Shown: piece by piece, positions 1,654 through 60,086 of the stretch
Layout: every line of letters begins with the position of its first letter
How positions within the stretch are numbered: position 1 is the first letter of the stretch
NCBI GenBank assembly: GCA_049840395.1
Contig: JASGLD010000001.1
Coordinates: 612,366-676,365, forward strand
Length of the DNA: 64,000 nucleotides
Direction of reading: 5' to 3'
DNA from: Steroidobacteraceae bacterium
GTDB lineage: Bacteria > Pseudomonadota > Gammaproteobacteria > Steroidobacterales > Steroidobacteraceae
The notes under the pieces: model-generated
Told to the model about the DNA's origin: nothing
Database searches by the model: none
The model's input: the letters and a program-made list of their open reading frames with translations, nothing else
Program-made: the position numbers and the translations under genes

Positions 1654-5083
<3,430 letters not shown>

Positions 5084-30372: not shown

Positions 30373-30680
30373 AACGATCACAAACCACGGCACCAATTCC
30401 TTGATGGCGAATCATCCACGACTTGGATGATTTCGTATTCGTCATCCTCCTCGCCATCCAACAAATATTTTCACAAGAGTATTGACTCCAATAAAAACAG
30501 GCATAACATGCGCGCCCCTATGTTTACTCAAATACACAAACCAACTCTGTCGCAGCAGCTTTATAGCTGCGTGCACATCGCGAATGAAGCCATTCGCGGT
30601 GACGGGTTGGTGTTGTCTTATGAATTGCCAGCGCAATTCAACATGGATGCAAACAAGCTAAGTTAGCTTTCTACGCAAGT

Positions 30681-41525: not shown

Positions 41526-42323
41526 ATGCCTGGGTCCAATGCCGGCGCTGTTTTCTTGGTAGTCATCCAGCTTGAGACGCATCCAATGACCCAATCCCTA
41601 TCCACCCGCTTCCCCCTCACCGCCAAGTACGATCCCAACTGGATTCGCGACAACGCCATGGGCGAGAACGCGCTATGCCAGGTTGAATCGCTGGCGCGAC
41701 GCCTGCCGCTGCGTCCCGGCATGCGCATTCTGGATCTCGGCTGCGGCAAGGCAACCAGTTCGATTTTCATGGCGCGTGAATTCGGTGTGCAGGTGTGGGC
41801 GGTGGATGAGGGCACCTCGCCCACCGAGAACCGCAAACGCGCCCTCGACATGGACTGCGAGACCAATGTGTTGCCGCTGCGGCTGGATGCGCACCATCTG
41901 CCCTTCGCCAAAGAAAGCTTCGATGCCGTGATCGCCATCGACTCGTACCTCTACTACGGCACGGATGATCGCTACCTGGCCTATATCGCGCAGTTCATCA
42001 AGCCCGGCGGCTTCATCGGCATCGTGGACATTGCCTTCACCCGCGAGCTGTACGGCATCGACGATGCGCCGCCGTTCCTGCGTGCGCAGTACGCCAAACA
42101 TTGGTCCTATGTACACAGCATCGACTGGTGGCGGAACCACTGGGAGAAAACCGGACTGGTGGAAGTGCAATGCGCCGAGCTGCTACCCGAGAGCGATGAG
42201 CTGCTGCGCGACTACGTGCTGGATCGTCCGCCCGAGCAGGATGAGGATTCGATCATGCGCGCGGTGCCGCGCGATCATGAGGGGTTGCTGGCGTTGTTTT
42301 GTTTGGTGGGGCGGAAGGGTTAG
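41526..42323 (+). CDS. Class I SAM-dependent methyltransferase
   Basis: Motif I (ILDLGCGKA) and post-I acidic residues. Genome-typical GC. Confidence 0.8.
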   Translation: MPGSNAGAVFLVVIQLETHPMTQSLSTRFPLTAKYDPNWIRDNAMGENALCQVESLARRLPLRPGMRILDLGCGKATSSIFMAREFGVQVWAVDEGTSPTENRKRALDMDCETNVLPLRLDAHHLPFAKESFDAVIAIDSYLYYGTDDRYLAYIAQFIKPGGFIGIVDIAFTRELYGIDDAPPFLRAQYAKHWSYVHSIDWWRNHWEKTGLVEVQCAELLPESDELLRDYVLDRPPEQDEDSIMRAVPRDHEGLLALFCLVGRKG

Positions 42324-42334: not shown

Positions 42335-42362
42335 ACCCCCGGCCCGGCGATGTTGCTTATCG
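42335..42362. repeat. Truncated right end of the ~150-bp cassette-array repeat (AAATACCCCCGGCCCGGCGATGTT), marking the left edge of the accessory island
   Basis: Same terminal motif as repeat copies A, B and D. It sits 12 bp after the methyltransferase stop. Confidence 0.55.
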
Positions 42363-42376
42363 AAGATATTGCTCCG

Positions 42377-44659
42377 TTAAAAAGGAATGTCGTCATCAAA
42401 CTCGTCGGTTCTGTCTTCGATGACAGGATTCTGGTCAATGATGGGTCTAAATTCCTGCAGGGCCAACGGGGGATGCGCTGCGCGAAACGTGGTTCGAAAC
42501 TCGCTTTGATCATTCAGTCGAATGAGAACGGGATTTTCGCAACTTGAAGCTTTTCCAAAGAAGACTGCATGTCGTTCTGGCAGTGAAGATAATGTGCTTG
42601 CGTAATCGCGCCCAATGTAATTAGCCAAGAATTCCTTTCCTGTTTCATCGAATGTCCGCATGGCAAACACTGTGTTGCATTGATTAAGGATTGTCTTTGT
42701 AACGTTAGCGGTACGCTGAGTTATTAATAAACACCCAAGCCCATACTTTCTCCCTTGTAGAATGGCACGAGCTGTTCCGCTGGTTGCATTCTTGTCACCT
42801 TCATTTACTACGGAGTTCCACTCCGGGATCAACGAGTGAGCCTCTTCATATACAAGGCAAACGCGGGCTGTCGGCGACATTTTGGTGGAAAGAACCGAAA
42901 GAGTTGATTCTGAAATTATTTGCGTAATTTCAACGGGCGTCACTGAGAATAGTCCGGCACGACTTCGCCACTCGTTACCTACTTTGTACTGGCTTGGTTC
43001 GCGTTGCTGTTTTGTTGCGACGAAGCTTGACGGGTTATATATCTTGAGCGGACGATTATTGTTATCGCTTAAAAAGTCAGAAATATCTGCGTAAATGGCA
43101 TCGCGCAGATTGGGTAATGATCCGCCATGCTCCGGATTGTTATCTAGCTCTTCACGATCTTTCTCAGAGGCTGCTTGTAGCTTCGCTAAGCAATGCTCTT
43201 CATAAGTGGAATCGTAAAAGTCATTCAATTCTTGTTCGTATTGATTCGTAAGGTCAAGACAAATGACCTTTATGCCTTCCGCCATGATTCGTTCAATCAA
43301 TTCGATGGCTAGCATTGATTTTCCAATGCCAAGAATTCCTAGAATAGCGGTGTTGTGTGTAACTAGATCGCTGATGCTCTTAATCTTTGCATGGAAGTTA
43401 GTCTCAGGAAAATGGCCAACCGAATTTATATTAACTTGGTATTCGGATCGCTTTTCAAGATATACGGGAGTGTTCAGTGTAGGTAACCAATTGCATTGCG
43501 AGAACTTAGAAAAGGCGTCATTCCAAACGCCGATTTGCTGCGCTTGTCCTCGCAAATATCCATAAGTATTCTTTTGTTGAACAATTTCTTCTTTTGTTAG
43601 GCCACCTACTATCTGATAGAGCACCTTATTTTGCCCAACCTTAGTAGAGACTAGACGTCCCTCCTCAAGCTCTGAGTTTTGGACTATCTCAAAGTATAGT
43701 CGCTCTATTGTCGTGTCTGGGGCGACCAAGCCAACTATGCTGGTTTGAGAATCTCTGGATAAGTTCTCAATACGGCAGATTTTATCGAGTATGTCGTCCT
43801 TAAGTTTATATACAGTCTCGTCTATAGGTGAGGCATCGATAGCTGAGTTACTTACTGCTGATAGATTTTTTAGTTCCACCGCACGAATAAGGATGCCTTC
43901 TGCCCGACCTACAAAATCCAAGGCGGCGACAAGCTTTTTTGGGCCGTGCTTATCACTGATATAAAGTAGGTCATATTTATTAATATCTCCTTCATGCTGT
44001 TGGCGAAGCAGCACAATTCCTGGATCTTGGAAAGCAACTACTTCGCCAATAGCGCCGTCGAAAACGTTGTTCGTGAATGTGCGCTTTATTTTATTAAATC
44101 CGCCAACTGTAAAATTTCCAAGCGACCACCAAACAGTTGTTCCGGTAACCATGCCTATAACGACTGCCTCTATCCAAGACTCTGCGTGAAAGCAAAAAAT
44201 TGAAAAAAGAACCAAGGGGGTATAGATGTACTCAGGCTGGCCGATTAGATCGAGTCCTATTCGGATTTTATTCGAAAGTTCTTTAGCCCACTCTGCATGC
44301 GAAGAATTTAGAGAAATGGTGAGGATGCCAAAGAACCCGACGACGAGGCTCGGTGCCATTGCTAGAACAAATCCCCATTGTTGATTAGCCGACCAGATGG
44401 GCCATTTGTTGACAAGTAATAGTGATATTGCTGCCGGTATCGCGTACGAAATTGCATCTACTGGTTTTACGTAGAATGGGGTTGCTAGTTTTGAACCTAT
44501 TAGCACTGAGAGTAGAGCTGAATATGCCCAAAAGCCCTTGTCACCCAAAGGCGGATATGGTGTGCCAAACAGGTAGTTGCATGCTATGAACACAACAATC
44601 AAGTCGATGCATAGTGATAAAAGGCGCTGTGGCTGGGTCAGTGCGAAATCTTTTTTCAT
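42377..44659 (-). CDS. HerA/FtsK-superfamily (DUF87-like) P-loop ATPase with an N-terminal polytopic membrane domain; low GC, likely horizontally acquired
   Basis: 760 aa. ~6 TM helices, a central beta-rich region, Walker A GILGIGKS, Walker B LVYEEAH and a HerA-type C-terminal motif LLITQRTANVTKTILNQCNTVF. GC is far below neighbours. Confidence 0.85.
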   Translation of the reverse strand: MKKDFALTQPQRLLSLCIDLIVVFIACNYLFGTPYPPLGDKGFWAYSALLSVLIGSKLATPFYVKPVDAISYAIPAAISLLLVNKWPIWSANQQWGFVLAMAPSLVVGFFGILTISLNSSHAEWAKELSNKIRIGLDLIGQPEYIYTPLVLFSIFCFHAESWIEAVVIGMVTGTTVWWSLGNFTVGGFNKIKRTFTNNVFDGAIGEVVAFQDPGIVLLRQQHEGDINKYDLLYISDKHGPKKLVAALDFVGRAEGILIRAVELKNLSAVSNSAIDASPIDETVYKLKDDILDKICRIENLSRDSQTSIVGLVAPDTTIERLYFEIVQNSELEEGRLVSTKVGQNKVLYQIVGGLTKEEIVQQKNTYGYLRGQAQQIGVWNDAFSKFSQCNWLPTLNTPVYLEKRSEYQVNINSVGHFPETNFHAKIKSISDLVTHNTAILGILGIGKSMLAIELIERIMAEGIKVICLDLTNQYEQELNDFYDSTYEEHCLAKLQAASEKDREELDNNPEHGGSLPNLRDAIYADISDFLSDNNNRPLKIYNPSSFVATKQQREPSQYKVGNEWRSRAGLFSVTPVEITQIISESTLSVLSTKMSPTARVCLVYEEAHSLIPEWNSVVNEGDKNATSGTARAILQGRKYGLGCLLITQRTANVTKTILNQCNTVFAMRTFDETGKEFLANYIGRDYASTLSSLPERHAVFFGKASSCENPVLIRLNDQSEFRTTFRAAHPPLALQEFRPIIDQNPVIEDRTDEFDDDIPF

Positions 44660-44699
44660 ATGGTTTATCCGTAACCTCTCAGATACTTAATAGCCCGCT

Positions 44700-44880
44700 C
44701 CGCGGATGTCGCCGGGTCGGGGGATTGGGAGTATTTATCGAGCACACTGCGAGAGAGTGTAAAGCTACACTTTAACTATTTTTAAATCACCCGATCCACA
44801 GACTCGTCATTACGTTCTCGCGCTCCGCGCACCGCGGGCTCCGAGGAGCCCGCTGCACGACTCAGGGGATCGGGTCAATC
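44700..44880. repeat. attC-like/cassette-boundary palindromic region
   Basis: CCGCGGATGTCGCCGGGTCGGGGG and GGGCTCCGAGGAGCCC palindromes, related to the repeat ends elsewhere in the array. Confidence 0.4.
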
Positions 44881-44881
44881 A

Positions 44882-45166
44882 TCAACCCGCCTCAACCAGC
44901 GGCCGGATATAAACCGAATCCAAACGATTCACCGACTCTCGAACGAGGGTCATGGCGATCTCTACGACATCCGGAAAATAGCCCTGTTGTTTTGGGTCGC
45001 TGTCATCGGCGTATTCAAGCGCCACATACAGACATTGAAGTAAAGATTGCGCTTTTGAAAGCTGGGTGCGCTCGGCTTCAATCGCTTCGTGTAACGCTTG
45101 GTGACGGGAATTGTGAATAGAGTTTTTGGAAAGACGCTGTTTCGAAGTAGAATTTCGCTTAGCCAT
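44882..45166 (-). CDS. Cassette-like small hypothetical protein (94 aa)
   Basis: ORF bounded by repeats. No recognisable domain. Confidence 0.45.
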   Translation of the reverse strand: MAKRNSTSKQRLSKNSIHNSRHQALHEAIEAERTQLSKAQSLLQCLYVALEYADDSDPKQQGYFPDVVEIAMTLVRESVNRLDSVYIRPLVEAG

Positions 45167-45530
45167 GGTGACCTCGTTGATAGGTGACTTTGGTTAGGCG
45201 TTCGTCTCGGTGACAGCCGGGGCGGACGCCGCTTTTTGTGGGCTGTTCGTGCCGCGTGAATTCCCAAAATGCCTGGAGCAATCCGTGTCGGCGGCATGAG
45301 CTAATCCCCACACAATCATGCCAGATAACTGTATGGATAACCAGCTAAAAAGCTTAAGTGAATTCAATTCATCGGCGCGCAACTTCAGTTAAAACTTTTC
45401 TACTTCTTTATCTGCAAACTGAAAATCAACATCACGCTCATCGGGTTGTGATGTTTGGGAGCGAATGACTACATAAATACCTACGGATCGACGGCCCGGT
45501 GATGCTGACCGCCGGGGTACACTCCATTCA

Positions 45531-46067
45531 CTACGTGCAACGACTAAACGCTAGTCTTAATGCCGTTCCAATTTCTCCATGTGTACTAATTGCAGGAATC
45601 TTCAAATGCTGCTCGTCTGCGATTCCTCTATTTGAATATTCTTCAAGCCCCTCATAATGACTTGGCACAATCATGATTATTCCATCAGCCTGGGAGATAC
45701 TGCAGCTTTTCATGTCCTTAAAAAGTGCACGACGTGAGCGATAACCATACTTCTTAACTTGTTGCTCAATGCATCTATTGTAGTGGTTACTTGATTCATC
45801 ACGTATCTCCTCCGCCTGCTTGAGACTAAAGAAACGAGTTTTGTCTAGGGCGGAAACAATTGCTTGGCCCAGTGCATCATCAAGGCTACTCACCGATATA
45901 TCGACCGGCGCATACAATGGATCAGGCTGCCCCATGCGATAGGCAGAGTATGTCCACACTGATATGAATTTACTACTTGACGTCGCTATCGCTTGTTTTT
46001 CTCTAATTGGATCGAGAACAGTCGGACTAAATAGCGACGTCACTTTTTTCCTAATTTTCTCTAGCAT
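45531..46067 (-). CDS. Cassette-like hypothetical protein (178 aa), low GC
   Basis: A palindromic GC-rich repeat (ACGGCCCGG...CCGCCGGGGT) lies immediately downstream of the stop. Confidence 0.6.
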   Translation of the reverse strand: MLEKIRKKVTSLFSPTVLDPIREKQAIATSSSKFISVWTYSAYRMGQPDPLYAPVDISVSSLDDALGQAIVSALDKTRFFSLKQAEEIRDESSNHYNRCIEQQVKKYGYRSRRALFKDMKSCSISQADGIIMIVPSHYEGLEEYSNRGIADEQHLKIPAISTHGEIGTALRLAFSRCT

Positions 46068-46218
46068 TGAACGATCCTATTAGTCAGGCCTCCAAGAGTT
46101 ATTATTAATATACACCGGCACACCCCGTACTGGGTTGCTCTTCAAACCACCGTCATAATTAACTGCCCGCTGAATTTGCTGAATCTGCACAGCAGGAGTT
46201 TCCGCACACGACAACGGT

Positions 46219-46362
46219 GCTGGGCCGTCGGATCGGGGATTCAAGAAGAATAATCGAGAACTGACTTCGTCTACTTCACAAGATGCTTTCATCTCGCGGC
46301 ACTTAAGCAACTGCAGTTGATATATATCAAATACCCCCGATCCCCCGGCCAGGCGATGTTCT
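46219..46362. repeat. ~150-bp cassette-array repeat, copy A (attC-like)
   Basis: Shares ~80% identity with copies at 46951-47098, 51041-51198 and 52803-52957. Ends CCGGCCAGGCGATGTT. Spurious ORF 46080..46487 is its translation. Confidence 0.65.
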
Positions 46363-46532
46363 GTTCTCCCCGAAGGGAGCGAGACGATTGGGTAAGGCGA
46401 GAGGCATAGAACCGGAAGTACAAAGCAGTGCGGCGGCAGCGCTTGATCATCGAGCGCACATTGACCGACAATGTTCTGAGCGACCATTAAAATCGCAGCT
46501 TAGTCGCAAGCAGCACTCAGGGAGATAAAGAG

Positions 46533-46946
46533 ATGCCTACGCTCGAGCCCGTCGAATTAAAAGCATTCATCCCGGCAAAGGACTACCAACTTTCAATCCA
46601 ATTTTACCAAGACCTCGGTTTTACCTTGTGCTGGGGAGGCGAAGGCGAGCTTGCCTACTTCCATTACGGCGACCATGGCAATCACGGCAAAGTCGGTTTC
46701 CTGCTGCAACGTTTCTACGTCAAAGAATTCGCAGAAAACCTCATGATGCATCTCATCGTCAAAGACCTCGATGCATGGTGGGCGAACGTGCAAGATAAAA
46801 ATTTGGCGGAGAAATACGGCGTGAGAACGGAGCCGCCTGAGCTTCGGCCATGGGATATGACGGACTGTGTTATTTGCGATCCGTCGGGGGTTTTATGGCG
46901 GATCGCACAGGAAGATCAAGGAGAGGATTGGCGCGAACCGGCTTAG
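46533..46946 (+). CDS. VOC family (glyoxalase/bleomycin-resistance-like) protein; the only plus-strand cassette gene
   Basis: 137 aa with a beta-alpha-beta-beta-beta VOC-like pattern. A common integron cassette function. Confidence 0.65.
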   Translation: MPTLEPVELKAFIPAKDYQLSIQFYQDLGFTLCWGGEGELAYFHYGDHGNHGKVGFLLQRFYVKEFAENLMMHLIVKDLDAWWANVQDKNLAEKYGVRTEPPELRPWDMTDCVICDPSGVLWRIAQEDQGEDWREPA

Positions 46947-46950
46947 CAGT

Positions 46951-47098
46951 CGACATCGCCGGGCCGGGGGAGGGGACTCAAGAAGAGTAATCGAGAACTG
47001 ACTTCGCTTACTTCACAAGATGCTTTCGTCTCGCGGCACTTAAGCAACTGCAGTTGATATATATAAAATACCCCGATCCTCCGGCCCGGCGATGTTCA
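46951..47098. repeat. ~150-bp cassette-array repeat, copy B (attC-like)
   Basis: Terminal inverted repeats CATCGCCGGGCCGG ... CCGGCCCGGCGATG. It lies directly below the stop of 47109..47573. Confidence 0.65.
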
Positions 47099-47108
47099 CG
47101 TAGCATGT

Positions 47109-47573
47109 TCATAGGAGCGTAAGCACTCCATCCTCTATCGAGAACGGAGCGTCATTGACCGCAGTGATCTTTCCGTCGAAAGACAAACAAAGTTTGTGTT
47201 CGGGGTCCCAGCGGGGATCGACATGAATGCTGGCAAAGAGGTCTGAGTGAACGTTAAGAATGGCTGCTCCGACTTCGGTCAGCACCTGGGACCTAGCTAG
47301 GCCAGAGGGAACCTTCCAAAATCGAAGCCAATCGTTGGTCTCGGCATGCTTGTAGTGCCCATATATCAAATCCCAAATTTGCGAACCGTGAGTCTCGGCG
47401 AATGCCGCAAGCCTAGCCGCTAGATTGACCATCGCTTCAGTCGGCAAGGTCTCAATGTCGCAGTAAAGCTCAACGGGTAAAATACCAATCTCCGTCTCGA
47501 CGGAGTGTTCCCAAAGCCAGGTATCAAAGAGAGCTGGCCCGCGAGGTTGCTTGTGAAATTCAGAGAGCCGCAT
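47109..47573 (-). CDS. Cassette-like hypothetical protein (154 aa)
   Basis: ORF immediately upstream (in gene orientation) of repeat copy B. Confidence 0.6.
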   Translation of the reverse strand: MRLSEFHKQPRGPALFDTWLWEHSVETEIGILPVELYCDIETLPTEAMVNLAARLAAFAETHGSQIWDLIYGHYKHAETNDWLRFWKVPSGLARSQVLTEVGAAILNVHSDLFASIHVDPRWDPEHKLCLSFDGKITAVNDAPFSIEDGVLTLL

Positions 47574-47693
47574 AGTTTGAGTGAGCCACAGAATGAGACG
47601 CCCAACGCTGCTGATAAGCCGACGCGAAAGAGCGTAGCGATTGAGCGGTCGAACGACCGGAGGGAGTGAACTTGATTGGCTGGTTAGGTGCCT

Positions 47694-47927
47694 TCATGAC
47701 TTGGAGAGCGCAATAAACCATTTTTCAGGGTGCTTCGGGCATAACAGTTGTCCAGCCTCATCTTTCTTTCCTTCGCGGACAAGTTGAACAACTTTGTGAG
47801 CTTCCAGATGCCTTGGAATCTCAGGAAGTGATTCATTACAACAAGCAGCCAGCACGACATCGCGCAGGCGATACCAATCAGTTGACGATAAATCCGTATC
47901 GTTGAAACCACTGCTCATAGCGGGCAC
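47694..47927 (-). CDS. Possible small cassette ORF (77 aa)
   Basis: Only ORF in the 47.6-48.1 kb gap. Weak support. Confidence 0.3.
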   Translation of the reverse strand: MPAMSSGFNDTDLSSTDWYRLRDVVLAACCNESLPEIPRHLEAHKVVQLVREGKKDEAGQLLCPKHPEKWFIALSKS

Positions 47928-48095
47928 CTAACGAATTAACTAACGGGCGCGCCGTCTTTCGGCGCGTCTGCGTTAAGTGATTTGTTAGTGCTCTTAGCTT
48001 TCATCAGTTTGAACCTCAATTTCAAGCTCGTCGTTTCTTCCGAGCTTCAATACGTAAGCGAACTTGCCAGAACCCAACAGAGGACAACGGTGCCG

Positions 48096-48160
48096 GGCCG
48101 TCGGATCGTAGGTGTCCTTGCGCGGACCGACGGCCCGGCACCGCTCACCCTGTGTCGGAG
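48096..48160. repeat. GC-rich palindrome (GTGCCGGGCCGTCGG...CCGACGGCCCGGCAC), attC-like
   Basis: A 15-nt inverted repeat directly downstream of the 48184..48615 stop. Related to the left end of repeat copy A. Confidence 0.5.
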
Positions 48161-48183
48161 CGATTTGCGGGCTGCAGCCATCA

Positions 48184-48615
48184 CTACTCAATGTAGAGAT
48201 GAGCAAGTAAATGACGCTTTTCCTTATCTGCAAGTACGTCGATGGATCCCCCGTTAGGTGCATCCTTGGGCTTACCTAGATAGTGCCACGCCACTTCGAA
48301 ATTTGGCCCCTTGTTTTCAGACATGGGGTGGTCATGGGCATGCTTGTAGTAGGGAGTTTCCTCCAATGTATATGGCTCACTCACCAGCAATTTTGGGAAA
48401 TCAGAAGGATCTATCTCGAACGCACAAGTTACCAATGTGTCTGTAAAGCCCAGTGACGCACAGTCAGCAGATGAGACCGACCATGGCACAGTATTCAGGT
48501 CAAAAAGATATCCGACTCCCATTCGCTCTTGCCACCAAGAAAATGTGAGGCCCAGTGCGAACAGTGTAAGTGTGGCGCCTAGCCAAAGCTTCCATCTCTT
48601 AAGCTGCTGTAGCAT
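48184..48615 (-). CDS. Cassette-like membrane-anchored hypothetical protein (143 aa)
   Basis: N-terminal TM (LWLGATLTLFALGLTFSWW). Confidence 0.6.
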   Translation of the reverse strand: MLQQLKRWKLWLGATLTLFALGLTFSWWQERMGVGYLFDLNTVPWSVSSADCASLGFTDTLVTCAFEIDPSDFPKLLVSEPYTLEETPYYKHAHDHPMSENKGPNFEVAWHYLGKPKDAPNGGSIDVLADKEKRHLLAHLYIE

Positions 48616-48627
48616 TTGTCTCTAGTT

Positions 48628-48695
48628 GCCTAACGCCGTGTATTAGACGACAAGTCGCGAGTCTGCGCCGGGCCGTCTCGAAGCGCTGGTTAGGT
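48628..48695. repeat. Canonical integron attC-like site (68 bp): GCCTAAC ... GTTAGGT
   Basis: Inverse core RYYYAAC (GCCTAAC) and core GTTRRRY (GTTAGGT) as inverted repeats. The core overlaps the TAA stop of 48690..49019 (ACCTAAC on the coding strand). Confidence 0.6.
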
Positions 48696-49019
48696 TGCTT
48701 TTGGTTGCGCATTAAAGAAGTGTACGAGATCAGCAGCGGTCTTGACCTTGCCATATAGCGGGTTCGCTTCCATCTTATCCATCGAGCGAGCTGTCCGTTG
48801 CGCAATCTCGGAGGCAATATCCATATCGAGATCTTCGCTGTCTATTGGCAAATCCTGGCCAAAGACATCCGATGCTCGGATTGGGATCTGATACTTCGAT
48901 CCTAAGTGCTCTTGTAGTTGCTCATAAACCGCGCGCACGACCCAGGTATCAACCGAGCGCTCATCGAATGAGCGAGCGAACTCACAAATGGACTCACCTT
49001 TTCTAGAAGCTGCAAGCAC
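48690..49019 (-). CDS. Cassette-like hypothetical protein (109 aa), possibly an ACP-like fold
   Basis: The acidic IDSEDLDMDI segment vaguely resembles a phosphopantetheine attachment region. Low confidence on function. Confidence 0.55.
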   Translation of the reverse strand: MLAASRKGESICEFARSFDERSVDTWVVRAVYEQLQEHLGSKYQIPIRASDVFGQDLPIDSEDLDMDIASEIAQRTARSMDKMEANPLYGKVKTAADLVHFFNAQPKAT

Positions 49020-49059
49020 GAACCCGCGACCCGGCGATGCTCATCCAAAACGCATTGCT

Positions 49060-49560
49060 CTACTCGCCGTACTCAAATGAGTGCAGAGCATGAAGCGCGC
49101 TAACCACGTGCGGCCCCCAATGAAGTCGAAACATTTCACGCCAACTGTACACAGCGGCCTCGACATGCCCAGCATCAAACAACCAGAGGCCTGACGAGAT
49201 GTCCGCGTAGATGTCTTGGAAGTCGTCGAACAGATCGCCACAACCTGGCTCCGTATCTGTATCGGGCAAGGCGGGTTCGCACAGAACCCAATAATACTGA
49301 AAAGGCAAAGCTGATAAATTCTGTGCTACCACTTGGCGCTGAACGTCAGTTGTACGAGGAGCCTCAGGAGACCGTTTGAATTCGACTTCCGGTAGGTAGA
49401 GCGCTGAGTTGTAAACAGAAGATAGATGACGAAGCGCTTCGACCTTGAATTGCTTCGGAGCTGCGCCATCGTGGTCCGTTTTGCACCACTTTACGAATTG
49501 TCGCGCATGCTTCTCAAACTGAGCTATTGCATCTGATTGAGTCATGATGCGTTCGAACAA
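49060..49560 (-). CDS. Cassette-like hypothetical protein (166 aa)
   Basis: Separated from the previous ORF by only 40 bp, which contains a repeat-end remnant (ACCCGGCGATG). Possibly a two-gene cassette. Confidence 0.6.
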   Translation of the reverse strand: MFERIMTQSDAIAQFEKHARQFVKWCKTDHDGAAPKQFKVEALRHLSSVYNSALYLPEVEFKRSPEAPRTTDVQRQVVAQNLSALPFQYYWVLCEPALPDTDTEPGCGDLFDDFQDIYADISSGLWLFDAGHVEAAVYSWREMFRLHWGPHVVSALHALHSFEYGE

Positions 49561-49617
49561 GTAACGAACGGACGTGGGTGTCCGGGCATGTTTATTACTG
49601 AGGACACTCGACGACTC

Positions 49618-50202
49618 CTAGAACAGGAATTCCTGTACGGCTAATGATGCGACAATTCGTCCGTTTACAGTCGCTGGCTCAAATCGCCATTGCTTCATGC
49701 TTTCGAGCGCCGCCGCAGTAAGCGCGGGCGAGGAAGTCTCGAGCACGACCTGATCACTTGCAACGCCGCTAGTCGTAATGATGTAGCCGATTACAACCTT
49801 ACCTGACTTAGGCATACCGTCAGCATCCAATTGCCGACCCGGCAAACTGCCCGCAAGAACTTTAGCTCTATTCATAATCGAATCGTTAAGAACGTCGGCA
49901 AAGATGTACTTGCACCCATAGGCTTTCTTAAGCGCTTGGTCCATTTGACTCGTTTCCGCCGTGGCACGATTGAATATCGTGCGCGCCAGCATCGACTCGG
50001 TGGATTCCTTTTTCGCACCGGACTTGCTGGGCGACTCACAGGCAGCATTAGCCGAAATACAGCAGGATAGTGCGGCAATTCCAGCAAAGACTCGTATCAT
50101 GATTTTCATGCAAATAGGCCTAACGTTCCCAGTAAGCTGAACAGTGTCAGGTCGTCGATCCGTATGTATGTATTTTAATGGCGAGGGTGAAGTACACCAC
50201 AT
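49618..50202 (-). CDS. Secreted TonB C-terminal-domain-like protein; probable true start at MKIMIRVFAGIAALSCC (~50109)
   Basis: Signal peptide. The C-terminal region resembles TonB_C (VVLETSSPALTAAALESMKQWRFEPATVNGRIV). Confidence 0.6.
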   Translation of the reverse strand: MWCTSPSPLKYIHTDRRPDTVQLTGNVRPICMKIMIRVFAGIAALSCCISANAACESPSKSGAKKESTESMLARTIFNRATAETSQMDQALKKAYGCKYIFADVLNDSIMNRAKVLAGSLPGRQLDADGMPKSGKVVIGYIITTSGVASDQVVLETSSPALTAAALESMKQWRFEPATVNGRIVASLAVQEFLF

Positions 50203-50279
50203 AAATACCTACGGATCGACGGCCCGGCATCGTTTCCCGCGGCATCATTTCCCGAATCGCCTCCAATTGCTTGTTAAGC
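50118..50279. repeat. attC-like site (162 bp): GCCTAAC ... GTTAAGC
   Basis: RYYYAAC and GTTRRRY cores at the two ends. GTTAAGC overlaps the TAA stop of 50274..51005. Internal ACGGATCGACGGCCCGG matches the 45470 repeat. Confidence 0.55.
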
Positions 50280-51005
50280 ATCCGCACTTTTTGGTCTCTT
50301 CCAAATGAGAAAATTGGCGTTGCTCGTGCTCCCCATCGCTTTGATTACGGCTTCGTCGTTCAATACATTGAAACGAGATTGAAGCTGCTCAAGGAGTTTG
50401 AATTTCACTGCCGCATCGTGCGGGATCAAGCAGCCTTTCTGGTTGCCATCCATGATTGCAAAGAACACATCCTCTGCATATGGGCCGTCATCTGTAGTAA
50501 TGATTCTGATCTCATCTACGTCATCCCAACGAATTCGCTCGTTTATCGAGCCTACCGTCCTCACAACACCCACATCATCGATTTCGATCGTTTCTGTTTC
50601 AGTCCCGGGTTCCGCCCCGAATCCGAACCTGGCGCGTCGCAGATAGGCAGCAGCTGGAAAGCCGAATGCGACAAGCGCAAGGATGGCATTGATCACAGAT
50701 GGGTTTGATCGGGATTCGGAAACCGCTACGCTATCAACGATTTCGGTGAACAGATACCACGCGGTGACAACAAGTACCGCGGACGCAAGGAAGCTGCCTA
50801 TTACCCTCTGAATACGACCGTGGACGAAACAGACGGCCGCGATACCAAGGCAAAAGGTGCCAAACAAGTAGTGACCGATCGGCCTATCCGCGCTCGGCGC
50901 GATGAGAATCATCACCATGCCGAACAAACCCGCGAAGAACGAGAGAATTAATCGAAGTGCAAGACCATTGCCGCCTCGTGTCGGCTGTGTTTCTTCGGGG
51001 ATCAT
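50274..51005 (-). CDS. Cassette-like membrane protein (243 aa; 4 TM plus a cytoplasmic domain)
   Basis: Hydrophobic N-terminal half and a soluble acidic C-terminal half. Confidence 0.6.
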   Translation of the reverse strand: MIPEETQPTRGGNGLALRLILSFFAGLFGMVMILIAPSADRPIGHYLFGTFCLGIAAVCFVHGRIQRVIGSFLASAVLVVTAWYLFTEIVDSVAVSESRSNPSVINAILALVAFGFPAAAYLRRARFGFGAEPGTETETIEIDDVGVVRTVGSINERIRWDDVDEIRIITTDDGPYAEDVFFAIMDGNQKGCLIPHDAAVKFKLLEQLQSRFNVLNDEAVIKAMGSTSNANFLIWKRPKSADA

Positions 51006-51040
51006 TGTGATATTGCTGGTAGATTGATTAGTGCGGAATC

Positions 51041-51198
51041 AGCATCGCCGGGCCGGAGGATCGGAGGATTCAAAAAGAACAATTGAGAACTGGCTTCGCC
51101 TGCTTCACAAGATGCTTTCGTCTCGCGGTACTTAAGAAACTGCAGTTGATATGTATCAATAGCCACGATTCACGGCCCGCTGCAACTGCTTGTTAGCC
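51041..51198. repeat. ~150-bp cassette-array repeat, copy C (attC-like), ending with GTTAGCC
   Basis: Aligned with copies A, B and D. GTTAGCC lies 19 bp before the GNAT stop. Confidence 0.6.
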
Positions 51199-51216
51199 GC
51201 TGGCATGTCGGTGATG

Positions 51217-51699
51217 CTAGCTCTCTGATGCAAAATGATCGAGCTCCGGCCCTGCGAGTCTGAAATACAGCTTGCCCGGATTCGTTTGGGCTCCGAGTTG
51301 ACGATAGAAGCTCAATGCTTCCAGGTTAGTTTCGTCGACGGTCCAGTCGAAGCGGCTACACGATTTGGAAACAGCATAGCGAGCTACGAAGTGCATCAAG
51401 GCCTTGCCAATACCTCCGCCGCGACAATCAGAGGCCACAAACAGCTCCTTCATGAAGAGCTGTCCGCGCTCCTTGGGTGCGGGATAAAGAATAGAGATTG
51501 AGGCCAAGCCGACTGCGCGTACACCGTCGAGCGCGATGACTAGGTGCACACCTGAGTGCTCACCCAGTATGTTCTTGATAAGGTTCTGTCTCACCTCGTG
51601 ACGTTCAGACGCATTCGGGCCGTTGTAATGAGCGCTCATGTCGAGCATGAGGTCTGTTACGGTTTCCAAGTATTCATGCGTGTAGAACTGAATGTGCAT
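51217..51699 (-). CDS. GNAT family N-acetyltransferase
   Basis: Acetyl-CoA binding motif (RGGGIGKALMHFV). Confidence 0.8.
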   Translation of the reverse strand: MHIQFYTHEYLETVTDLMLDMSAHYNGPNASERHEVRQNLIKNILGEHSGVHLVIALDGVRAVGLASISILYPAPKERGQLFMKELFVASDCRGGGIGKALMHFVARYAVSKSCSRFDWTVDETNLEALSFYRQLGAQTNPGKLYFRLAGPELDHFASES

Positions 51700-51934
51700 G
51701 ATTGGCGGCTAACTAGAAGTAGAGGCCGGTGATACGGGCCCTAAATGTCCCTTTACAAAGGTACTTATATCAGTGTTGTGCACCTTGGTTCTCCAGAATT
51801 CCTTGTCGAACAATCGGCTGCTGCTTTGTAGCTGAGCGTATCGAAAAAAGCAAAAGGGACTTGTGAGTGGTCGCTCCTGGCCGGTATCTGCACTGCAATG
51901 GAGTCGGGCCATCGGATCATGGGTGTTTGGCGAT

Positions 51935-52010
51935 TGATGTATCAAGCCCAGTCAACATCTTGCCGCAGCGCATAGCTGCTATATTCCAAATGCACCACCC
52001 GGCGACGTTC
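51935..52010. other. Remnant of the 3' end of a phyH-like gene, duplicated from 54812-54885
   Basis: ~75 bp are ~90% identical to the 3' end plus ~20 bp downstream of the PhyH gene. The reverse complement encodes ...RVVHLEYSSYALRQDVDWA*. Confidence 0.6.
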
Positions 52011-52027
52011 ATGCGAGGAGATTGACC

Positions 52028-52774
52028 TCACCGCGCCAGTAAGCCCCGCAGGACCATGTAGCAGCCGAGCAAGAGCATGGCGAAGAGAAACCACCTTTTA
52101 AACGCCACGGGATCGATTCGTCCACGAGCGCGCTGCCCGGCAAACATGCCGATCAGTGCTGGGATCACTGCCAGTAGCGAGGCGAGCAAAGAAGTGGAGG
52201 AGTAGCTGCTGCGCACGCTCAGGCCAATGGCGAGCGCGATGGTGGCTACGGTGGCGAACAACCCAAAGGCTTGAACGAGTTCGTCCTTGCCCAAATCAAG
52301 AGCGCTCAGGTAAGGCACGGCCGGTACGAGGAATACACCTGTTGCCCCGCTAATGACGCCGGTGACGGCGCCGACGACGGGCGAAAGCACTGACTCTGAC
52401 TGCGGTGGCACAGTGAACTTGGGCAGGAATAGCGCCAGCAGCGCGTAGAGAGCGAGTACCGCTCCCAGTGCGACCGATGGCCAGCGGGAGGAGCCCGATG
52501 TCAGGAACTGAATGCCGAAAGCCGTTCCCACGCACACCAGCACCACCATGCTCGCGAATCGTTTTGTCACACTGACCGTCGCAGCCCCCACGGCGAACTG
52601 CCAGATGTTGGTAACCAGCGATGGCACCACGAGTAATGCAGCGGCTTGAACAGGCGCCATGACAACGCCGAGCGCGCCCATCGCAACCGTTGGCAGCCCC
52701 ATGCCAACTACACCCTTCACCCAGCCGGCAACGAAAAAGACAAGCGCCACAAAGGCAGCGGATTCGAGTGGCAC
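52028..52774 (-). CDS. TauE/SafE family sulfite exporter-like membrane protein
   Basis: 248 aa with 7-8 TM helices and Gly-rich repeats typical of TauE/SafE (DUF81). Confidence 0.75.
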   Translation of the reverse strand: MPLESAAFVALVFFVAGWVKGVVGMGLPTVAMGALGVVMAPVQAAALLVVPSLVTNIWQFAVGAATVSVTKRFASMVVLVCVGTAFGIQFLTSGSSRWPSVALGAVLALYALLALFLPKFTVPPQSESVLSPVVGAVTGVISGATGVFLVPAVPYLSALDLGKDELVQAFGLFATVATIALAIGLSVRSSYSSTSLLASLLAVIPALIGMFAGQRARGRIDPVAFKRWFLFAMLLLGCYMVLRGLLAR

Positions 52775-52802
52775 GTGTTGTAACTCCTAACGGGTGATGC
52801 AG

Positions 52803-52957
52803 TCGACATCGCCGGGCTGAGGGATCGGGGGACTCAAGAAGAATAATCGAGAATGGGGTTCGCCTGCTTTACTAGAAACTCTCGTCTCGCGGCACTTAAG
52901 CAACTGCAGTTGATATGTATCAATAGCCACGACCCCGCGCCCCCGGCGATGTTGGAC
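52803..52957. repeat. ~150-bp cassette-array repeat, copy D (attC-like), ending with the core GTTGGAC
   Basis: GTCGACATCGCCGGGCTG ... CCCCCGGCGATGTTGGAC. Spurious ORF 52787..53074 is its translation. Confidence 0.6.
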
Positions 52958-53120: not shown

Positions 53121-53552
53121 TTGATGATTCAAAGACAATCAAATAACCCGTGCTCGGAGACAAATATCATGAATCGAGAAGTCATACAGACTTCAGCTGC
53201 CCCAAAAGCAATAGGGCCATATTCTCAGGCAATCCGAGTAGGCGACCTTGTGTTCATCTCTGGGCAAATAGCTTTCGATCCGCTTACGATGGAATTGGTC
53301 AACAATGATATTGAGTCAGAGATTCGCCAAATATTTGAAAACCTGGAAGCAATTGCGCGCGCAGCAGATGGCTCACTAGCAAAAGCCTGCAAGCTAAATG
53401 TGTATCTCACGGATCTTGGGCATCTCGCCAAAGTTAACGAAGTCATCATGAAGTATTGCTCTGAGCCGTATGCGGCTCGGACATCTATTGGTGTCTCCGC
53501 TTTACCTCGCGGAGCTCGAGTGGAAATTGAGGTCATCTTACATTTTGGCTAA
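53121..53552 (+). CDS. ridA: RidA/YjgF family reactive-intermediate deaminase; probable start at MNREV (53169)
   Basis: Rid signature (PARSAVGVSALPRGARVEIE). Confidence 0.8.
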   Translation: MMIQRQSNNPCSETNIMNREVIQTSAAPKAIGPYSQAIRVGDLVFISGQIAFDPLTMELVNNDIESEIRQIFENLEAIARAADGSLAKACKLNVYLTDLGHLAKVNEVIMKYCSEPYAARTSIGVSALPRGARVEIEVILHFG

Positions 53553-53646
53553 AACGGTGGCGAGGTAACTTACATGTAAACGCTAGAGGTGAAGTGATAC
53601 CTCTGTAGTACTAGGTACTCCTTTAGCTTGAAAGGGAGAAGCTGTT

Positions 53647-54729
53647 ATGGATGAGAGCGAACTGAAGCGCCTGGAGGATCTTCAAGGCCACGCCGGGCCA
53701 TCAGTAAAAAATTATCCGCTCGACAGCTGGTGGGCCATCGCCACGGTGAGTGAAGTTGGGGAGAAGCCATTAGCCAGAAACCTGCTGCAGAAGCGCGTGG
53801 TGTTGTTTCGCGCGAGCGATGGGAAGCCGCACGCTCTTATGGATCGTTGTCCGCATCGATGGGCTCCACTCTCCATGGGAAAAGTGATTCAAGATGAAAT
53901 TGTCTGCGCTTATCACGGATTTAGATATAACGTGAAAGGCGAGTGTACGCTTGCTCCGAGTATGCAACAGCCCCCGCGAGCGCTCCGTGCTTGTGCTTAT
54001 CCCGCAATCGATTATGGTCCGTTTGTGTGGGTCTGGATGGGATGCCCTGAAAATGCAGATCCGACCCTCCTTCCAACGATTGTACGGAAACGCAATGCCG
54101 ATCAAGTGATAGCGGGCTACCAACTCACTAGTTGTGATTTCTCATTGATCCACGAAAATATAGCGGACACAGAGCACACTCTTTATCTTCATGGTAAGAC
54201 TGTTGGAAATGACGTCCGCATTGACTTTAGAAGGAAAGGGAAAGTTCATGGCGTAATGGACGCTGATTCCAGAGCAATTACATTTCTCTCTAGTGCGAGA
54301 GACATACCACCTTCAAAGTTTGATATCGCTCTTTTAGGATTGGAGAAAACAGAAAGCTGCAACATATCAACGAATGCAGTTTTTACTGCTCCAGGCTGTT
54401 TTTCTGCAGAAATAGAATGGGCGCCATCTGAGCGAAGGCCGGGCTCGGCAGGGCAAAGTGTCAAGGGTCTATACATGTGGTGTTCCACTCCCATTTCCGA
54501 TAACTCTTGCCATTTTTGGTGGGATCTCGCTTTTGATGGAGCGGTATTCAATCCAGAAGTCGTTAAAGATTTATGGTCAAAGCTTATTAAAGAGGATATC
54601 GACATAGTTGAGGGAGTTCAGAGATCCATTGATTCGAGTCGTGATGCAAAAGTTACGGACTTACTCGTAGTCGCCGATCGGCCGGTGGCGGCTATACGGC
54701 GTTTACTAAGAGCTATGGGGGAAGCATAG
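53647..54729 (+). CDS. Rieske [2Fe-2S] non-heme iron oxygenase, alpha-subunit-like
   Basis: Rieske motif CPHRW(x15)CAYHGF. The C-terminal catalytic domain has mononuclear-iron His/Asp residues. Mid GC. Confidence 0.8.
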   Translation: MDESELKRLEDLQGHAGPSVKNYPLDSWWAIATVSEVGEKPLARNLLQKRVVLFRASDGKPHALMDRCPHRWAPLSMGKVIQDEIVCAYHGFRYNVKGECTLAPSMQQPPRALRACAYPAIDYGPFVWVWMGCPENADPTLLPTIVRKRNADQVIAGYQLTSCDFSLIHENIADTEHTLYLHGKTVGNDVRIDFRRKGKVHGVMDADSRAITFLSSARDIPPSKFDIALLGLEKTESCNISTNAVFTAPGCFSAEIEWAPSERRPGSAGQSVKGLYMWCSTPISDNSCHFWWDLAFDGAVFNPEVVKDLWSKLIKEDIDIVEGVQRSIDSSRDAKVTDLLVVADRPVAAIRRLLRAMGEA

Positions 54730-54820
54730 TGACAGGGTGAGTGGTGTTAATCAGTCTTAACTAGGTTGCTGTCTTTAGGATCAAGCAGAGTGCGAGTGAT
54801 GGTGATCAATGATTAATGCA

Positions 54821-55495
54821 TCAAGCCCAGTCAACATTTGGCGGCAGCGCATAGCTGCTGTATTCCAAATGCACCACCCGACGATGCGCCTTGCTTTGTG
54901 ACTTGCTCGATGAGTGCAGCACGTGCGGGCGCATGATCATGGCGTCTCCGGCAGCGACTACGCAGGCAACGGGCTTGGAATTTTTTGCTAGTTGTTCGAT
55001 TTCCCTTTGAGCCAGTATTCCCTGGCGATGCGATCCTGGAATGATGTTGAGGCAGCCGCTTTTTTCGTCTGCATCGTCGATATGCAGTCTGATGGTCACC
55101 ATTTTATCGAGTACGGCGCGTGGCGGTTGTACATGATGCACGCCATCCTTGAATGACCAGGGTCCCCAACCCGACATTTCGCATCTTTGATTCAGTGTGA
55201 CGGTTCTATCTTGATGCCAGGCCACAAACCAGTTTGCTTCCGGTGTCTTGTCGAAAAATAAAGCGCGTACCAGACGAGGCGGTGACTGAAGTAGTTCGTT
55301 GGCAATATTCAGCATGTCTGGAGAACTGGCCAGTTGGGCAACGCTGCTGAACCTCTTTTCAAGATTGCGGATGCCATGCCGGCGAAGTTGCTCGCAGCCT
55401 AGACTGATCTCTGACTTGACGGCTTCAATGCTGTCGCGCGAGAGAATGCCTTTGCGAATCTCCGCGCCATCGGTATGAAAGTTGAGCGAGGTCAA
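54821..55495 (-). CDS. Phytanoyl-CoA dioxygenase (PhyH) family protein
   Basis: 224 aa; I did not pick out the PhyH-type 2-His-1-carboxylate iron motif, so the call rests on overall similarity. The C-terminus ...HLEYSSYALPPNVDWA is duplicated as a remnant at 51935-52010. Confidence 0.65.
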   Translation of the reverse strand: MTSLNFHTDGAEIRKGILSRDSIEAVKSEISLGCEQLRRHGIRNLEKRFSSVAQLASSPDMLNIANELLQSPPRLVRALFFDKTPEANWFVAWHQDRTVTLNQRCEMSGWGPWSFKDGVHHVQPPRAVLDKMVTIRLHIDDADEKSGCLNIIPGSHRQGILAQREIEQLAKNSKPVACVVAAGDAMIMRPHVLHSSSKSQSKAHRRVVHLEYSSYALPPNVDWA

Positions 55496-57904: not shown

Positions 57905-57928
57905 ATGTTGGAGTTGGATTTGCTTGTT

Positions 57929-57990
57929 TTGTAGGTCGGGTTTTAACCCGACTCTTACGTTTTAAGAGTCGGGTTAAAACCCGACCTACA
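57929..57990. repeat. REP hairpin (TGTAGGTCGGG family), ~28-bp perfect stem
   Basis: TGTAGGTCGGGTTTTAACCCGACTCTTACGTTTTAAGAGTCGGGTTAAAACCCGACCTACA. Confidence 0.65.
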
Positions 57991-58011
57991 AAGAGCAGCT
58001 GAACGCAGCTC

Positions 58012-58865: not shown

Positions 58866-60086
58866 TTAGTCAATCGGCAGCGTTGCCGGGAGTAACAATG
58901 TCGTCGTGAATCCGGGCAGGGGTGGCGTCAGCCAGCGGCGTGCGCGGCCACGACCGAACGCTTGCACTTTATTCGCCATGGCCAGCGTATCGAGTGCGCG
59001 TTGCACCGAGCGCTGGCTCATGCCCAGCGCCAGTGCCAACGCCGAACTCGACCAAGATTCACCATCGGCCAGCAAGGCCAGCACGGCGGCATGCTCATCT
59101 TCATTCACGGGGGCGAGTACGACAATTTCATCTGCACGATGCGGCGCCAGCATGAAACCGCGTTGCGTGGCCTGTATGTCGGCCAACGGTTTTAGCAATT
59201 GGCGCAGTCGTCCTATTTCCACACGCAGGCGTACCCGTTGCGATTCATCGGCGGACTTCAAGCGGAAGGCGCGTGCGATGAGCGCGTCTCTGGAGACATC
59301 GGCCGGCCATGCTTCGGCCAGCATGCGAATCAGCACAAACAAGATCGGTCGTGTGGCGAGCGACACTGCGGTATTGGCAAGCCGCACGCCGTAGCGACAG
59401 ACATCGACAACGAATACTTGGGATGCCAGCAGAGCTTCGACCTCATCGAGTTTTAAAAGTCGTTGCTCGCCAGCCGTAAGCGAACGTGCGGCAGGCGTGT
59501 TCAAGACTAATGCGGCGCTGGTCACTTCCGCTAACAAGGCCGGGATGTGTGCCTGCAGCGCGGCCTGTTCGGCGCGTGCCAATGCGGCACGCGCGTTCTG
59601 AGTATGCAGCCGTCGCATGCTGATGCCGACCATCACCAGCTCATGAACCGTGCGTAGTGCAGCCGGCAGCACTGAGGCATCCAATTGGGCCAGGGCCTGT
59701 TCGGCTGCATCTATGTGCCCGATCAACAGTAGACGTCGCGCTTGCAGCTGTTGCGCATGGGCGGCGTTGGTGTGATCGCCGTGTGCTGCAAGCGTGATGC
59801 GTGCGGCATCGAGGGCCCTGGTTTGCCAGCTTAGATCACGTGCCGCGAGCGCCACTTCGGTTTCGGCAACAATACATTTGGCGCGCGCCACCGGTTCTTT
59901 GGTGCCGAAGGTGCGTGCGGCGCTGCGCAGTAAGGTTTTAGCGCGGACCAGATCGCCGAGCTGCGCCATGGCAATGCCACGCAGCGCCAATGCAGGTGCA
60001 TCGTTACGCAGTGCGACCCGCTTCAATGCGCCCAGTGGATCGCCAACTGCCAGCGCCCGCGCTGCGGCGTTGATCAATGAATCCAT
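58866..60086 (-). CDS. HTH transcriptional regulator (C-terminal winged-helix/MarR-like HTH, N-terminal TPR-like region)
   Basis: C-terminal HTH (WSSSALALALGMSQRSVQRALDTLAMANKV). Confidence 0.6.
   Translation of the reverse strand: MDSLINAAARALAVGDPLGALKRVALRNDAPALALRGIAMAQLGDLVRAKTLLRSAARTFGTKEPVARAKCIVAETEVALAARDLSWQTRALDAARITLAAHGDHTNAAHAQQLQARRLLLIGHIDAAEQALAQLDASVLPAALRTVHELVMVGISMRRLHTQNARAALARAEQAALQAHIPALLAEVTSAALVLNTPAARSLTAGEQRLLKLDEVEALLASQVFVVDVCRYGVRLANTAVSLATRPILFVLIRMLAEAWPADVSRDALIARAFRLKSADESQRVRLRVEIGRLRQLLKPLADIQATQRGFMLAPHRADEIVVLAPVNEDEHAAVLALLADGESWSSSALALALGMSQRSVQRALDTLAMANKVQAFGRGRARRWLTPPLPGFTTTLLLPATLPID

Follow-up and report, generated by a model that had tools for sequence, protein, structure and literature searches.

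The 64,000-nt stretch analysed here (positions 612,366 to 676,365 of contig JASGLD010000001.1, assembly GCA_049840395.1; hereafter the window) belongs to the chromosome of an uncultured Steroidobacteraceae bacterium, known as a metagenome-assembled genome, and displays between 42336 and 52957 an array of about 10.6 kb in which small genes alternate with palindromic elements (Table 1). The array holds 13 plausible open reading frames (ORFs), 12 of which lie on the minus strand while the VOC gene is the only one on the plus strand, and a palindromic element is found 3' of every gene, separating neighbouring ORFs. The guanine-plus-cytosine (GC) content is mosaic, with values of 0.42–0.52 across 43–52 kb when compared to 0.55–0.62 in the flanks, and the chromosomal surroundings consist of housekeeping genes, as determined by Pfam scans (smc, zipA, ligA, scpA/B and a purU-like gene). 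An earlier note, made from the sequence alone, had described a mosaic-GC island of about 12 small ORFs, 11 of them on the minus strand, each followed by a palindrome; composition and layout are as it stated, and only its counts had to be raised. The evidence presented below indicates that the region is very probably an integron cassette cluster without a nearby integrase, or cluster of attC sites that has no integron integrase (CALIN), a common and well-described kind of locus.

Six of the 13 ORFs have no family match in Pfam. The cargo of GNAT, VOC/glyoxalase and TonB_C proteins that the earlier note had named is borne out by Pfam matches; its GNAT and VOC genes and the ORFans are similar to the cargo of the complete integron on contig L027 described below. 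The gene for the 760-aa ATPase (42–48% GC) lies in the lowest-GC part of the island; NCBIfam HerA models score far under their cut-off with this protein, and its transmembrane character was judged by eye from the sequence. No partner gene accompanies it, and the gene possibly represents a large cassette with a candidate one-gene defence function. As judged from the sequence, the TonB_C gene is likely to start at the methionine of MKIMIRVF at 50109, directly after an R' site.

Table 1. Genes and repeat elements of the cassette array, in window coordinates
Position	Strand	Feature	Basis or remark
42336..42358	-	Truncated family A 5' arm, AACATCGCCGGGCCGGGGG plus 6 nt of centre	Left edge of array
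42377..44659	-	HerA/DUF87-type P-loop ATPase, 760 aa, hydrophobic N-terminal third	Pfam DUF87 1e-6; PADLOC HerA 9e-23
~44695..44870	-	Degenerate family A-like element (fifth copy)	Repeat comparison
44882..45166	-	ORF, 94 aa, no family match	Pfam
45468..45510	-	Family B half copy; 32 nt 97% identical to 50196-50227	Repeat comparison
45531..46067	-	CdiI-family immunity-like protein, 178 aa	Pfam PF07262 1.8e-30
46211..46362	-	Family A copy A1, hybrid of one A-type and one B-type arm	Repeat comparison, folding
46533..46946	+	VOC/glyoxalase-fold protein, 137 aa; 3' end 4 nt before A2	Pfam PF00903
46951..47098	-	Family A copy A2, near-perfect hairpin, 19-bp stem with one mismatch	Folding z = -6.4
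47109..47573	-	ORF, 154 aa, no family match	Pfam, PADLOC
47600..47689	-	Canonical attC C1: R'' ACCTAAC, 5-nt spacer, L'' AAT(C)AAGT with one bulged base	R1, R2
47694..47927	-	ORF, ~75 aa, no family match	Pfam
47926..47991	-	Canonical attC C2: R'' CACTAAC, AAATC, L'' ACT(T)AACG	R1 best match
48082..48149	-	Family B copy B1: perfect stem of 17 bp with short loop; 'spacer' paired throughout	Folding z = -6.2; model R3
48184..48615	-	ORF, 143 aa, N-terminal hydrophobic segment, no family match	Pfam
48628..48695	-	Canonical attC C3: R'' ACCTAAC, R' GTTAGGC	R1, R2
48690..49019	-	ORF, 109 aa, no family match	Pfam
49019..49045	-	Half copy (5' arm) of family A/B hairpin	Repeat comparison
49060..49560	-	DUF5063 protein	Pfam PF16702 8.5e-18
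49618..50109	-	TonB_C-domain protein	Pfam PF03544 5e-9
50118..50279	-	Long attC-like site B2: family B hairpin 50140-50234 inside canonical outer boxes	R2
50274..51005	-	Membrane protein, 243 aa, no family match	Pfam
51035..51198	-	Hybrid site A3	R1/R2 comparison; homology to L027 GNAT-cassette attC
51217..51699	-	GNAT acetyltransferase cassette gene	Pfam; protein 81% identical to L027 first cassette
51707..51713	-	Cassette-boundary core site GTTAGCC, exact reverse complement of A3 R'' GGCTAAC	Homology start versus L027
51726..51925	-	Decayed site: long imperfect hairpin, then family B-like arm (51889-51925)	Repeat comparison
51932..52005	-	74-nt duplicate of PhyH gene 3' end, 91% identical to 54811-54884	Rearrangement scar
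52028..52774	-	TauE/SafE-family permease, 248 aa	Pfam PF01925 9e-24
52803..52957	-	Family A copy A4, arms partly decayed; right edge of array	Repeat comparison, folding

Canonical attC sites and cassette boundaries

An attC covariance model (R1) was built from 12 bona fide class 1 attCs with no input from the window. Nine plasmid class 1 integrons were fetched with IntI1, a query sequence checked to be 100% identical to the real IntI1; attCs were cut downstream of named cassette genes and aligned, and the resulting model comprises a 7-bp R box, unpaired spacers of 5 and 6 nt and an L box with one bulge. R1 was run over the whole 64 kb on both strands (128 kb) with filters off. A second covariance model, R2, was built from L027-type attCs, which belong to a related chromosomal integron. 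Both models were made for this analysis, are distinct from IntegronFinder's own and are roughly calibrated. They took the place of a hand-written scanner for core sites and L boxes, which was discarded after missing 5 of 8 real attCs and showing poor specificity.

The two top R1 matches of the 64 kb are 47926-47991 (24.5 bits, E 0.0016) and 48628-48695 (19.5 bits, E 0.024), with 47600-47689 in fourth place (13.8 bits, E 0.55) and a weak score for the 5' half of A3, the end at 51198; all four matches are on the minus strand, which is the gene strand. R2 detected 47600-47689 (E 0.0078), 48628-48695 (E 0.01) and 50118-50279 (18.4 bits, E 0.016), and placed 47926-47991 at E 0.4. The earlier note had proposed a covariance model as a check on its reading, and a model derived from unrelated class 1 attCs indeed matches the array, on the strand of its genes.

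When compared with the bona fide class 1 attCs, C1, C2 and C3 have RYYYAAC...GTTRRRY ends and a 7-5-8...7-6-7 layout, with non-complementary spacers and a single extra, bulged base in L'' that is seen on the minus strand alone. The second half of C1 reads L' GCTTATC, a 6-nt spacer and R' GTTGGGC, and that of C2 reads L' CGTTAGT, TAATTC and R' GTTAGGT, the latter site folding with z = -4.5. Since the geometry is canonical and the L'' bulge is restricted to the minus strand, the genes lie on the attC top strand, which is the normal arrangement for cassettes. Two ORFs have their stop codons within R'' boxes (48690-48695 in C3 and 50274-50279 in B2), as is typical. The sites at 50118-50279 and 51035-51198 show the core-site and L-box geometry only in part. 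B2 has the outer boxes R'' GCTTAAC (containing the stop of the 243-aa ORF), a spacer AAGCA, an L''-like ATTGGAGG and R' GTTAGGC, while A3 begins with the canonical 5' end GGCTAAC AAGCA GTTGCAGC GGGCCGTGAATCG, which shows homology with the GNAT-cassette attC of L027. Where two textbook pairs of core sites had been proposed before, we thus find three full canonical sites, along with the outer boxes of B2 and the 5' half of A3.

In a real array, an R' box consists of a G followed by the six bases that open the next cassette, and its complement is found in that cassette's own R''. Two exact 7/7 complementarities are present: GTTAGGT (47932-47926, C2) with ACCTAAC (47689-47683, C1), and GTTAGCC (51713-51707) with GGCTAAC (51198-51192, A3). 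These are both of the junctions found with canonical partners on each side; the four remaining junctions with a canonical R'' fail the comparison (E3→E4, GCTTAAC; E7 R' GTTAGGC→B1).

The GNAT cassette recurs in a complete integron. On L027, a 245-kb metagenomic contig from ENA, a GNAT homologue with 81% protein identity opens a series of at least 15 small genes in one orientation, among them other GNAT and glyoxalase genes, and lies directly downstream of a divergent integrase gene. The encoded integrase is 51.5% identical to IntI1 over 297 residues and scores 412.6 bits with TIGR02249 'integron integrase' (cut-off 265); R1 identifies 16 attCs (E 1e-9 to 0.02) over the ~10 kb of the array that was fetched, and the R'/R'' signature is repeated there. 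DNA homology between the window and L027 (83%) extends from 51714 to 51172, that is, from the GTTAGCC boundary to 27 nt into the attC. A further contig (L036) encodes a 77% GNAT homologue with GTTAGCC before the start codon, an L027-type attC and a different upstream neighbour. As the boundaries are the same in the window, L027 and L036 while the neighbours differ, the GNAT unit is a mobile cassette of the kind that IntI recombination produces.

A 66% GNAT homologue was also observed on a Nevskiales-type contig (L028), where an N-terminal integron-integrase fragment is followed by two attCs (14762-14932); this is another decayed integron, with its GNAT gene outside the attC-bounded part. Within the window, an isolated near-perfect palindrome of 183 nt (6913-7095) has integron-type ends, GCCTAACAAATTGAGCG ... 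CGCTCAATTTGTTAGGC. It immediately follows an ORF of 574 aa without annotation, among housekeeping genes, and R2 matches both of its strands (E 0.017 and 0.11); it could represent a solitary site of attC type or a palindrome unrelated to attCs.

Paired hairpin families in attC positions

Most of the inter-cassette positions are occupied by two related hairpin families. Family A comprises four copies of ~150 nt, 71–82% identical to the reference copy, with a strongly conserved centre of ~95 nt and the inverted arms ACATCGCCGGGCCGGGGGATCGGGG; family B has arms related to these (AACGGTGCCGGGCCGTCGGATCGTAGG), short or medium loops and a length of 68–100 nt. In A3, the canonical 5' end is followed by the family A centre and 3' arm, and then by a decayed L' (GCTGATT), a spacer and R'. 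Folding compared with shuffles gives z of about -6.3 for A2 and B1, while A3 and A4 are decayed (z about -1). The hairpins end in AAC...GTT (or GAC/GTC), and each gene has a single one at the place of an attC; their arms contain the motif GG(G/A)CCGT, which is similar to the inner stem of attCs of the L027 type. Inside B2, the 5' end of the family B hairpin is tandemly duplicated (50210-50239, minus strand; GGGAAATGATGCCGC then GGGAAACGATGCCGG).

Within the window, both families are confined to the array. Their terminal motif CCGGCCCGGCGATG has 31 matches in the window at up to 3 mismatches versus 11.9 expected, a number reached by 0 of 100 shuffles. At 0–2 mismatches there are 11 matches in the array (42339-52820), and the two found outside, both with 2 mismatches (21368 and 36841), are taken to be chance; the family B arm is equally confined. 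Neither motif scans nor model R3, which was built from the A/B stem, revealed a copy of either family in the 53 kb of the window outside the array; R3 is unable to span long loops and matched only B1 and unrelated hairpins. Beyond the window, the family A core had no exact 29-mer match in GTDB representative genomes and no 23-mer match in JGI metagenomes, A2 had no blastn match in plasmids, and an Rfam search returned nothing relevant. A gapped inverted-repeat pattern gave 4 matches in metagenomes, which were rejected as chance since they lie inside coding DNA of 70%-GC contigs.

The arms are paired where attCs are open. The A/B stems run through the positions of the unpaired attC spacers, with no extrahelical base and no conserved bulge, and pairing has been kept while the sequence changed: the spacer is ATCG:CGAT in A and GGTG:CACC in B, and farther in GG:CC in A corresponds to TC:GA in B. 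In the arm alignment, 82% of cells are paired versus 27–48% in slid controls, and double (compensatory) changes affect 8 of 26 pairs of the A/B arms, a level reached by 5 of 500 shuffles. In attCs, extrahelical bases direct the choice of strand, and a paired central spacer strongly lowers recombination by wild-type IntI1 (PMC5027507), so that the A/B hairpins should be poor IntI substrates. The four paralogs of ~150 bp had been described before as attC-type repeats. The paralogs are present (A1 to A4), while the assignment fails, as they match neither attC model and lack the unpaired attC features, which only the smaller canonical sites have; likewise, the extrahelical base expected on folding exists as the one L'' bulge of C1, C2 and C3 and has no conserved counterpart in the hairpins.

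The most economical reading is that the A/B hairpins are palindromised or recombined derivatives of the resident attC type. A real if minority possibility is that they are instead an independent palindromic element, of the REPIN/MITE type (REP doublets, from repetitive extragenic palindromes, or miniature inverted-repeat transposable elements) or a gene-conversion hairpin, which overwrote the attCs of an ordinary CALIN. Pairing at positions where attCs are unpaired, held by eight compensatory pair changes, would suit such an element, as would the silence of both attC models, the half copies, which also occur with REP singlets, and the lack of R'/R'' complementarity with neighbouring sites; A3 in particular switches from an L027-homologous attC 5' end to family A as if overwritten. 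Against an independent element, every copy is found inside the 11-kb array and none in the other 53 kb of the window, and each gene has exactly one, at the place of an attC. No target-site duplication was found at the flanks of A1, A2 and A4, and Pfam scans identified no RAYT, Y1_Tnp or transposase domain among the window ORFs scanned. The AAC...GTT ends and the GG(G/A)CCGT motif, similar to the inner stem of attCs of the L027 type, also speak for a link to attCs, and a true dispersed family of REP doublets, headed by GTAG, exists outside the array at 30314 and 57928. Rather unlikely, in our estimate, is that A and B form a distinct structure-specific class, as an attC-site parasite or gene-conversion product or as sites for a recombinase unlike known IntI. 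The earlier note had offered a new class of repeat-bounded cassette island as an option, which is unneeded for the island as a whole and survives only in these minority readings of the hairpins.

The conservation of A/B copies is asymmetric (46211-47098): on the plus strand, 9–11 nt upstream of the stem are kept (GCAGTCGAC or CA(C/G)A(C/G)GACAAC), and on the other side conservation ends right after GTT. Because VOC is the only plus-strand gene and ends just before A2, the pair looks, on that strand, like a cassette in the opposite orientation.

Integrase search and history of the array

No integrase gene was identified in the 64 kb, in agreement with the earlier note: tblastn with IntI1, XerC and the L027 IntI gave a best E of 0.08, and Pfam detected no recombinase or transposase family in the array ORFs and 39 further ORFs. 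Neither a tyrosine recombinase nor a remnant of one was found in the 42 kb on the left of the array or in the 11 kb on its right, and the attI region of L027 has no significant similarity in the window. An attI or intI remnant upstream of the GNAT cassette was considered and found unsupported in the comparison with the L027 integrase and attI. The ORF at 58866-60086 has only a sub-threshold Pfam match to HTH_29. The set that makes up a complete integron, namely intI, attI and a Pc promoter adjoining the first cassette, was not found here. By definition, a CALIN has two or more attCs, spaced by less than 4 kb and sharing a strand, and no intI (PMC4889954); C1, C2 and C3 (R1), together with 50118-50279 (R2), are such sites, and with no tyrosine recombinase near the attC-bearing array we classify it as a CALIN.

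Since the cassettes are on the minus strand, an attI/intI platform would be expected to the right of 52957, where RidA, a Rieske oxygenase and a PhyH dioxygenase are encoded instead. These genes (53121-55495; the oxygenase is Rieske/VanA-type) have a low GC of 0.48–0.49 and no attC-type sites, and may share the acquired island. The duplicate of the PhyH gene 3' end is found within the array, flanked by the beginning of a hairpin arm and by a family B arm, which indicates that the region has been rearranged. At the left edge, the truncated repeat arm begins 13 nt past the stop codon of a methyltransferase gene (42321-42323). The earlier note had placed the array start, with a truncated repeat end, at this gene and called it core; the position is right, while the label is doubtful, as methyltransferase relatives (~80%) are found in unrelated contexts, without an integrase, and the gene is absent beside the antiporter gene of L025. 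L025 is the closest relative found (antiporter 83% identical) and has neither the methyltransferase at that place nor the array. It carries a canonical attC (12276-12340; R2 E 2e-9) after a 173-aa ORF, adjoining the antiporter on the side opposite to that of the window array. The antiporter neighbourhood may be a recurrent landing place for cassettes.

Several observations weigh against the CALIN assignment. The attC models match only 3–5 of the ~15 inter-gene elements, with modest E-values from two roughly calibrated models, and R2 gives scores comparable to those of the array sites at two places outside it, 6913-7095 and 14234-14268, so that single matches at this level are no proof by themselves. 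The A/B hairpins, whose paired stems were described above, score with neither R1 nor R2 (none at E < 10) except where canonical outer boxes exist, and have no R'/R'' complementarity with their neighbours in either orientation tried. GNAT is the only cassette traced to another integron, the other window cassette proteins having no match in the fetched related loci. Finally, the search covered a 64-kb window of a 999-kb contig, and intI may be located elsewhere in the genome.

The modest E-values and the R2 scores outside the array are also what would be seen if the region were unrelated to integrons, a generic acquired island with REP-like palindromes in which attC matches arose by chance. We regard this as highly improbable, given that the two best R1 matches of 128 kb fall inside the array and on the gene strand, that the R/L-box geometry is complete, with a single bulge, in three sites, that two exact 7/7 complementarities link consecutive sites, that stop codons lie within R'' boxes and that the GNAT cassette recurs, with matching boundaries, at the attI of a complete integron. 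The CALIN reading, which the earlier note had put forward, is thus supported by an attC model independent of the window, by a second model, by the lack of intI and by the recurrence of a cassette with the same boundary.

That the array still belongs to a working chromosomal integron, with its platform elsewhere and the A/B hairpins serving as functional non-canonical attCs, appears doubtful. In its favour, half of the known CALINs share their replicon with an IntI gene, and integrons are split by rearrangements (PMC4889954); here the scar left by the PhyH fragment is close to the side where the platform is expected, A2 and B1 form intact hairpins of high stability (z about -6), and hairpin conservation ends exactly after GTT on one side. 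Against this stand the absence of intI within 11 kb on the expected side and 42 kb on the other, the lowered wild-type IntI1 recombination with paired spacers and the role of extrahelical bases in strand choice (PMC5027507), and the truncation or decay of several copies (A3 and A4, z about -1; half copies).

For the CALIN we favour the following history. The cassettes were assembled by an IntI-type tyrosine recombinase, an enzyme that acts on the folded bottom strand of an attC hairpin and recombines it at the G|TT conserved in the R' box. The attI/intI platform would once have been to the right of 52957 and have been deleted or split off by rearrangement. Lacking intI and the Pc promoter, the array would be static in the absence of an integrase acting in trans, and its sites are in decay. 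Three canonical attCs and two sites with canonical outer boxes are left, most positions being now taken by A/B paired hairpins, presumably inactive. The arms of these may have become perfectly complementary, and recombination may have carried the hairpins from site to site, once selection by the integrase had ceased.

Significance and comparison with known systems

The array is one more example of the abundant CALIN class, in the little-studied soil lineage Steroidobacteraceae, and shows that this lineage exchanges cassettes with complete integrons. Its narrower interest lies in having canonical attCs, the hybrid site A3 and paired hairpins side by side at equivalent positions. If the hairpins are decay products, palindromisation would be one route of attC degeneration after loss of the integrase, which would explain why tools based on attC models would report only a third of such an array; an independent element, in turn, would count as a new occupant of these sites. 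In both cases, the A/B hairpins are testable substrates for the tolerance of IntI to the loss of unpaired features.

REPINs, REP doublets and MITEs share with families A and B the inverted arms (~26 nt) around a variable spacer, the occurrence of full and half copies, the intergenic location at gene 3' ends and the very stable folds. They differ in that A/B copies are confined to a cassette array, have no GTAG head and no target-site duplication and end in AAC...GTT like attC R boxes, and in that the scans run on the window identified no RAYT or transposase gene. The GTAG-headed, REPIN-like doublets of the window (30314-30374 and 57928-57992; TGTAGGTCGGGTTTTAACCCGACTCTTA ... TAAGAGTCGGGTTAAAACCCGACCTACA) are outside the array. 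IS1111-attC insertion sequences and group IIC-attC introns show that attC sites can be occupied or interrupted; these elements are protein-coding and have both attC halves flanking the insert, whereas A/B copies are non-coding and mostly have no flanking halves. One group II intron (ltrA) was observed in the attC region of a class 1 cassette on the Raoultella plasmid pWLK-NDM (L017, ~4198-5647).

Sedentary chromosomal integrons, such as L027 and those with the Vibrio repeats (VCR), likewise line up small genes (GNAT, glyoxalase-fold, ORFans) in long arrays of one orientation, with families of long sites (80–150 nt) specific to the array and with stop codons inside R''; L027 and the window further have the GNAT cassette in common, with the same attC 5' end. 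In contrast to them, the window array has no integrase, attI or Pc, and attCs of the L027 and VCR types keep the unpaired central spacer and the extrahelical bases, both of which the A/B hairpins lack. The closest likeness is to the CALINs, of which 279 were described in the genome set of PMC4889954, mostly without an intI pseudogene nearby and with cassettes of unknown, non-resistance function. Here as well, at least three attCs less than 4 kb apart lie on one strand of a chromosome, with no intI or recognisable intI pseudogene nearby, and the cassettes are mostly of unknown function and include no antibiotic-resistance gene. The difference is that most inter-cassette positions hold paired hairpins missed by attC models, which alone would call ~3–4 sites (47.6–50.3 kb) rather than the full 10.6 kb. 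Altogether, this array is typical of the CALIN class, its sole unusual feature being the fully paired hairpin families in attC positions.

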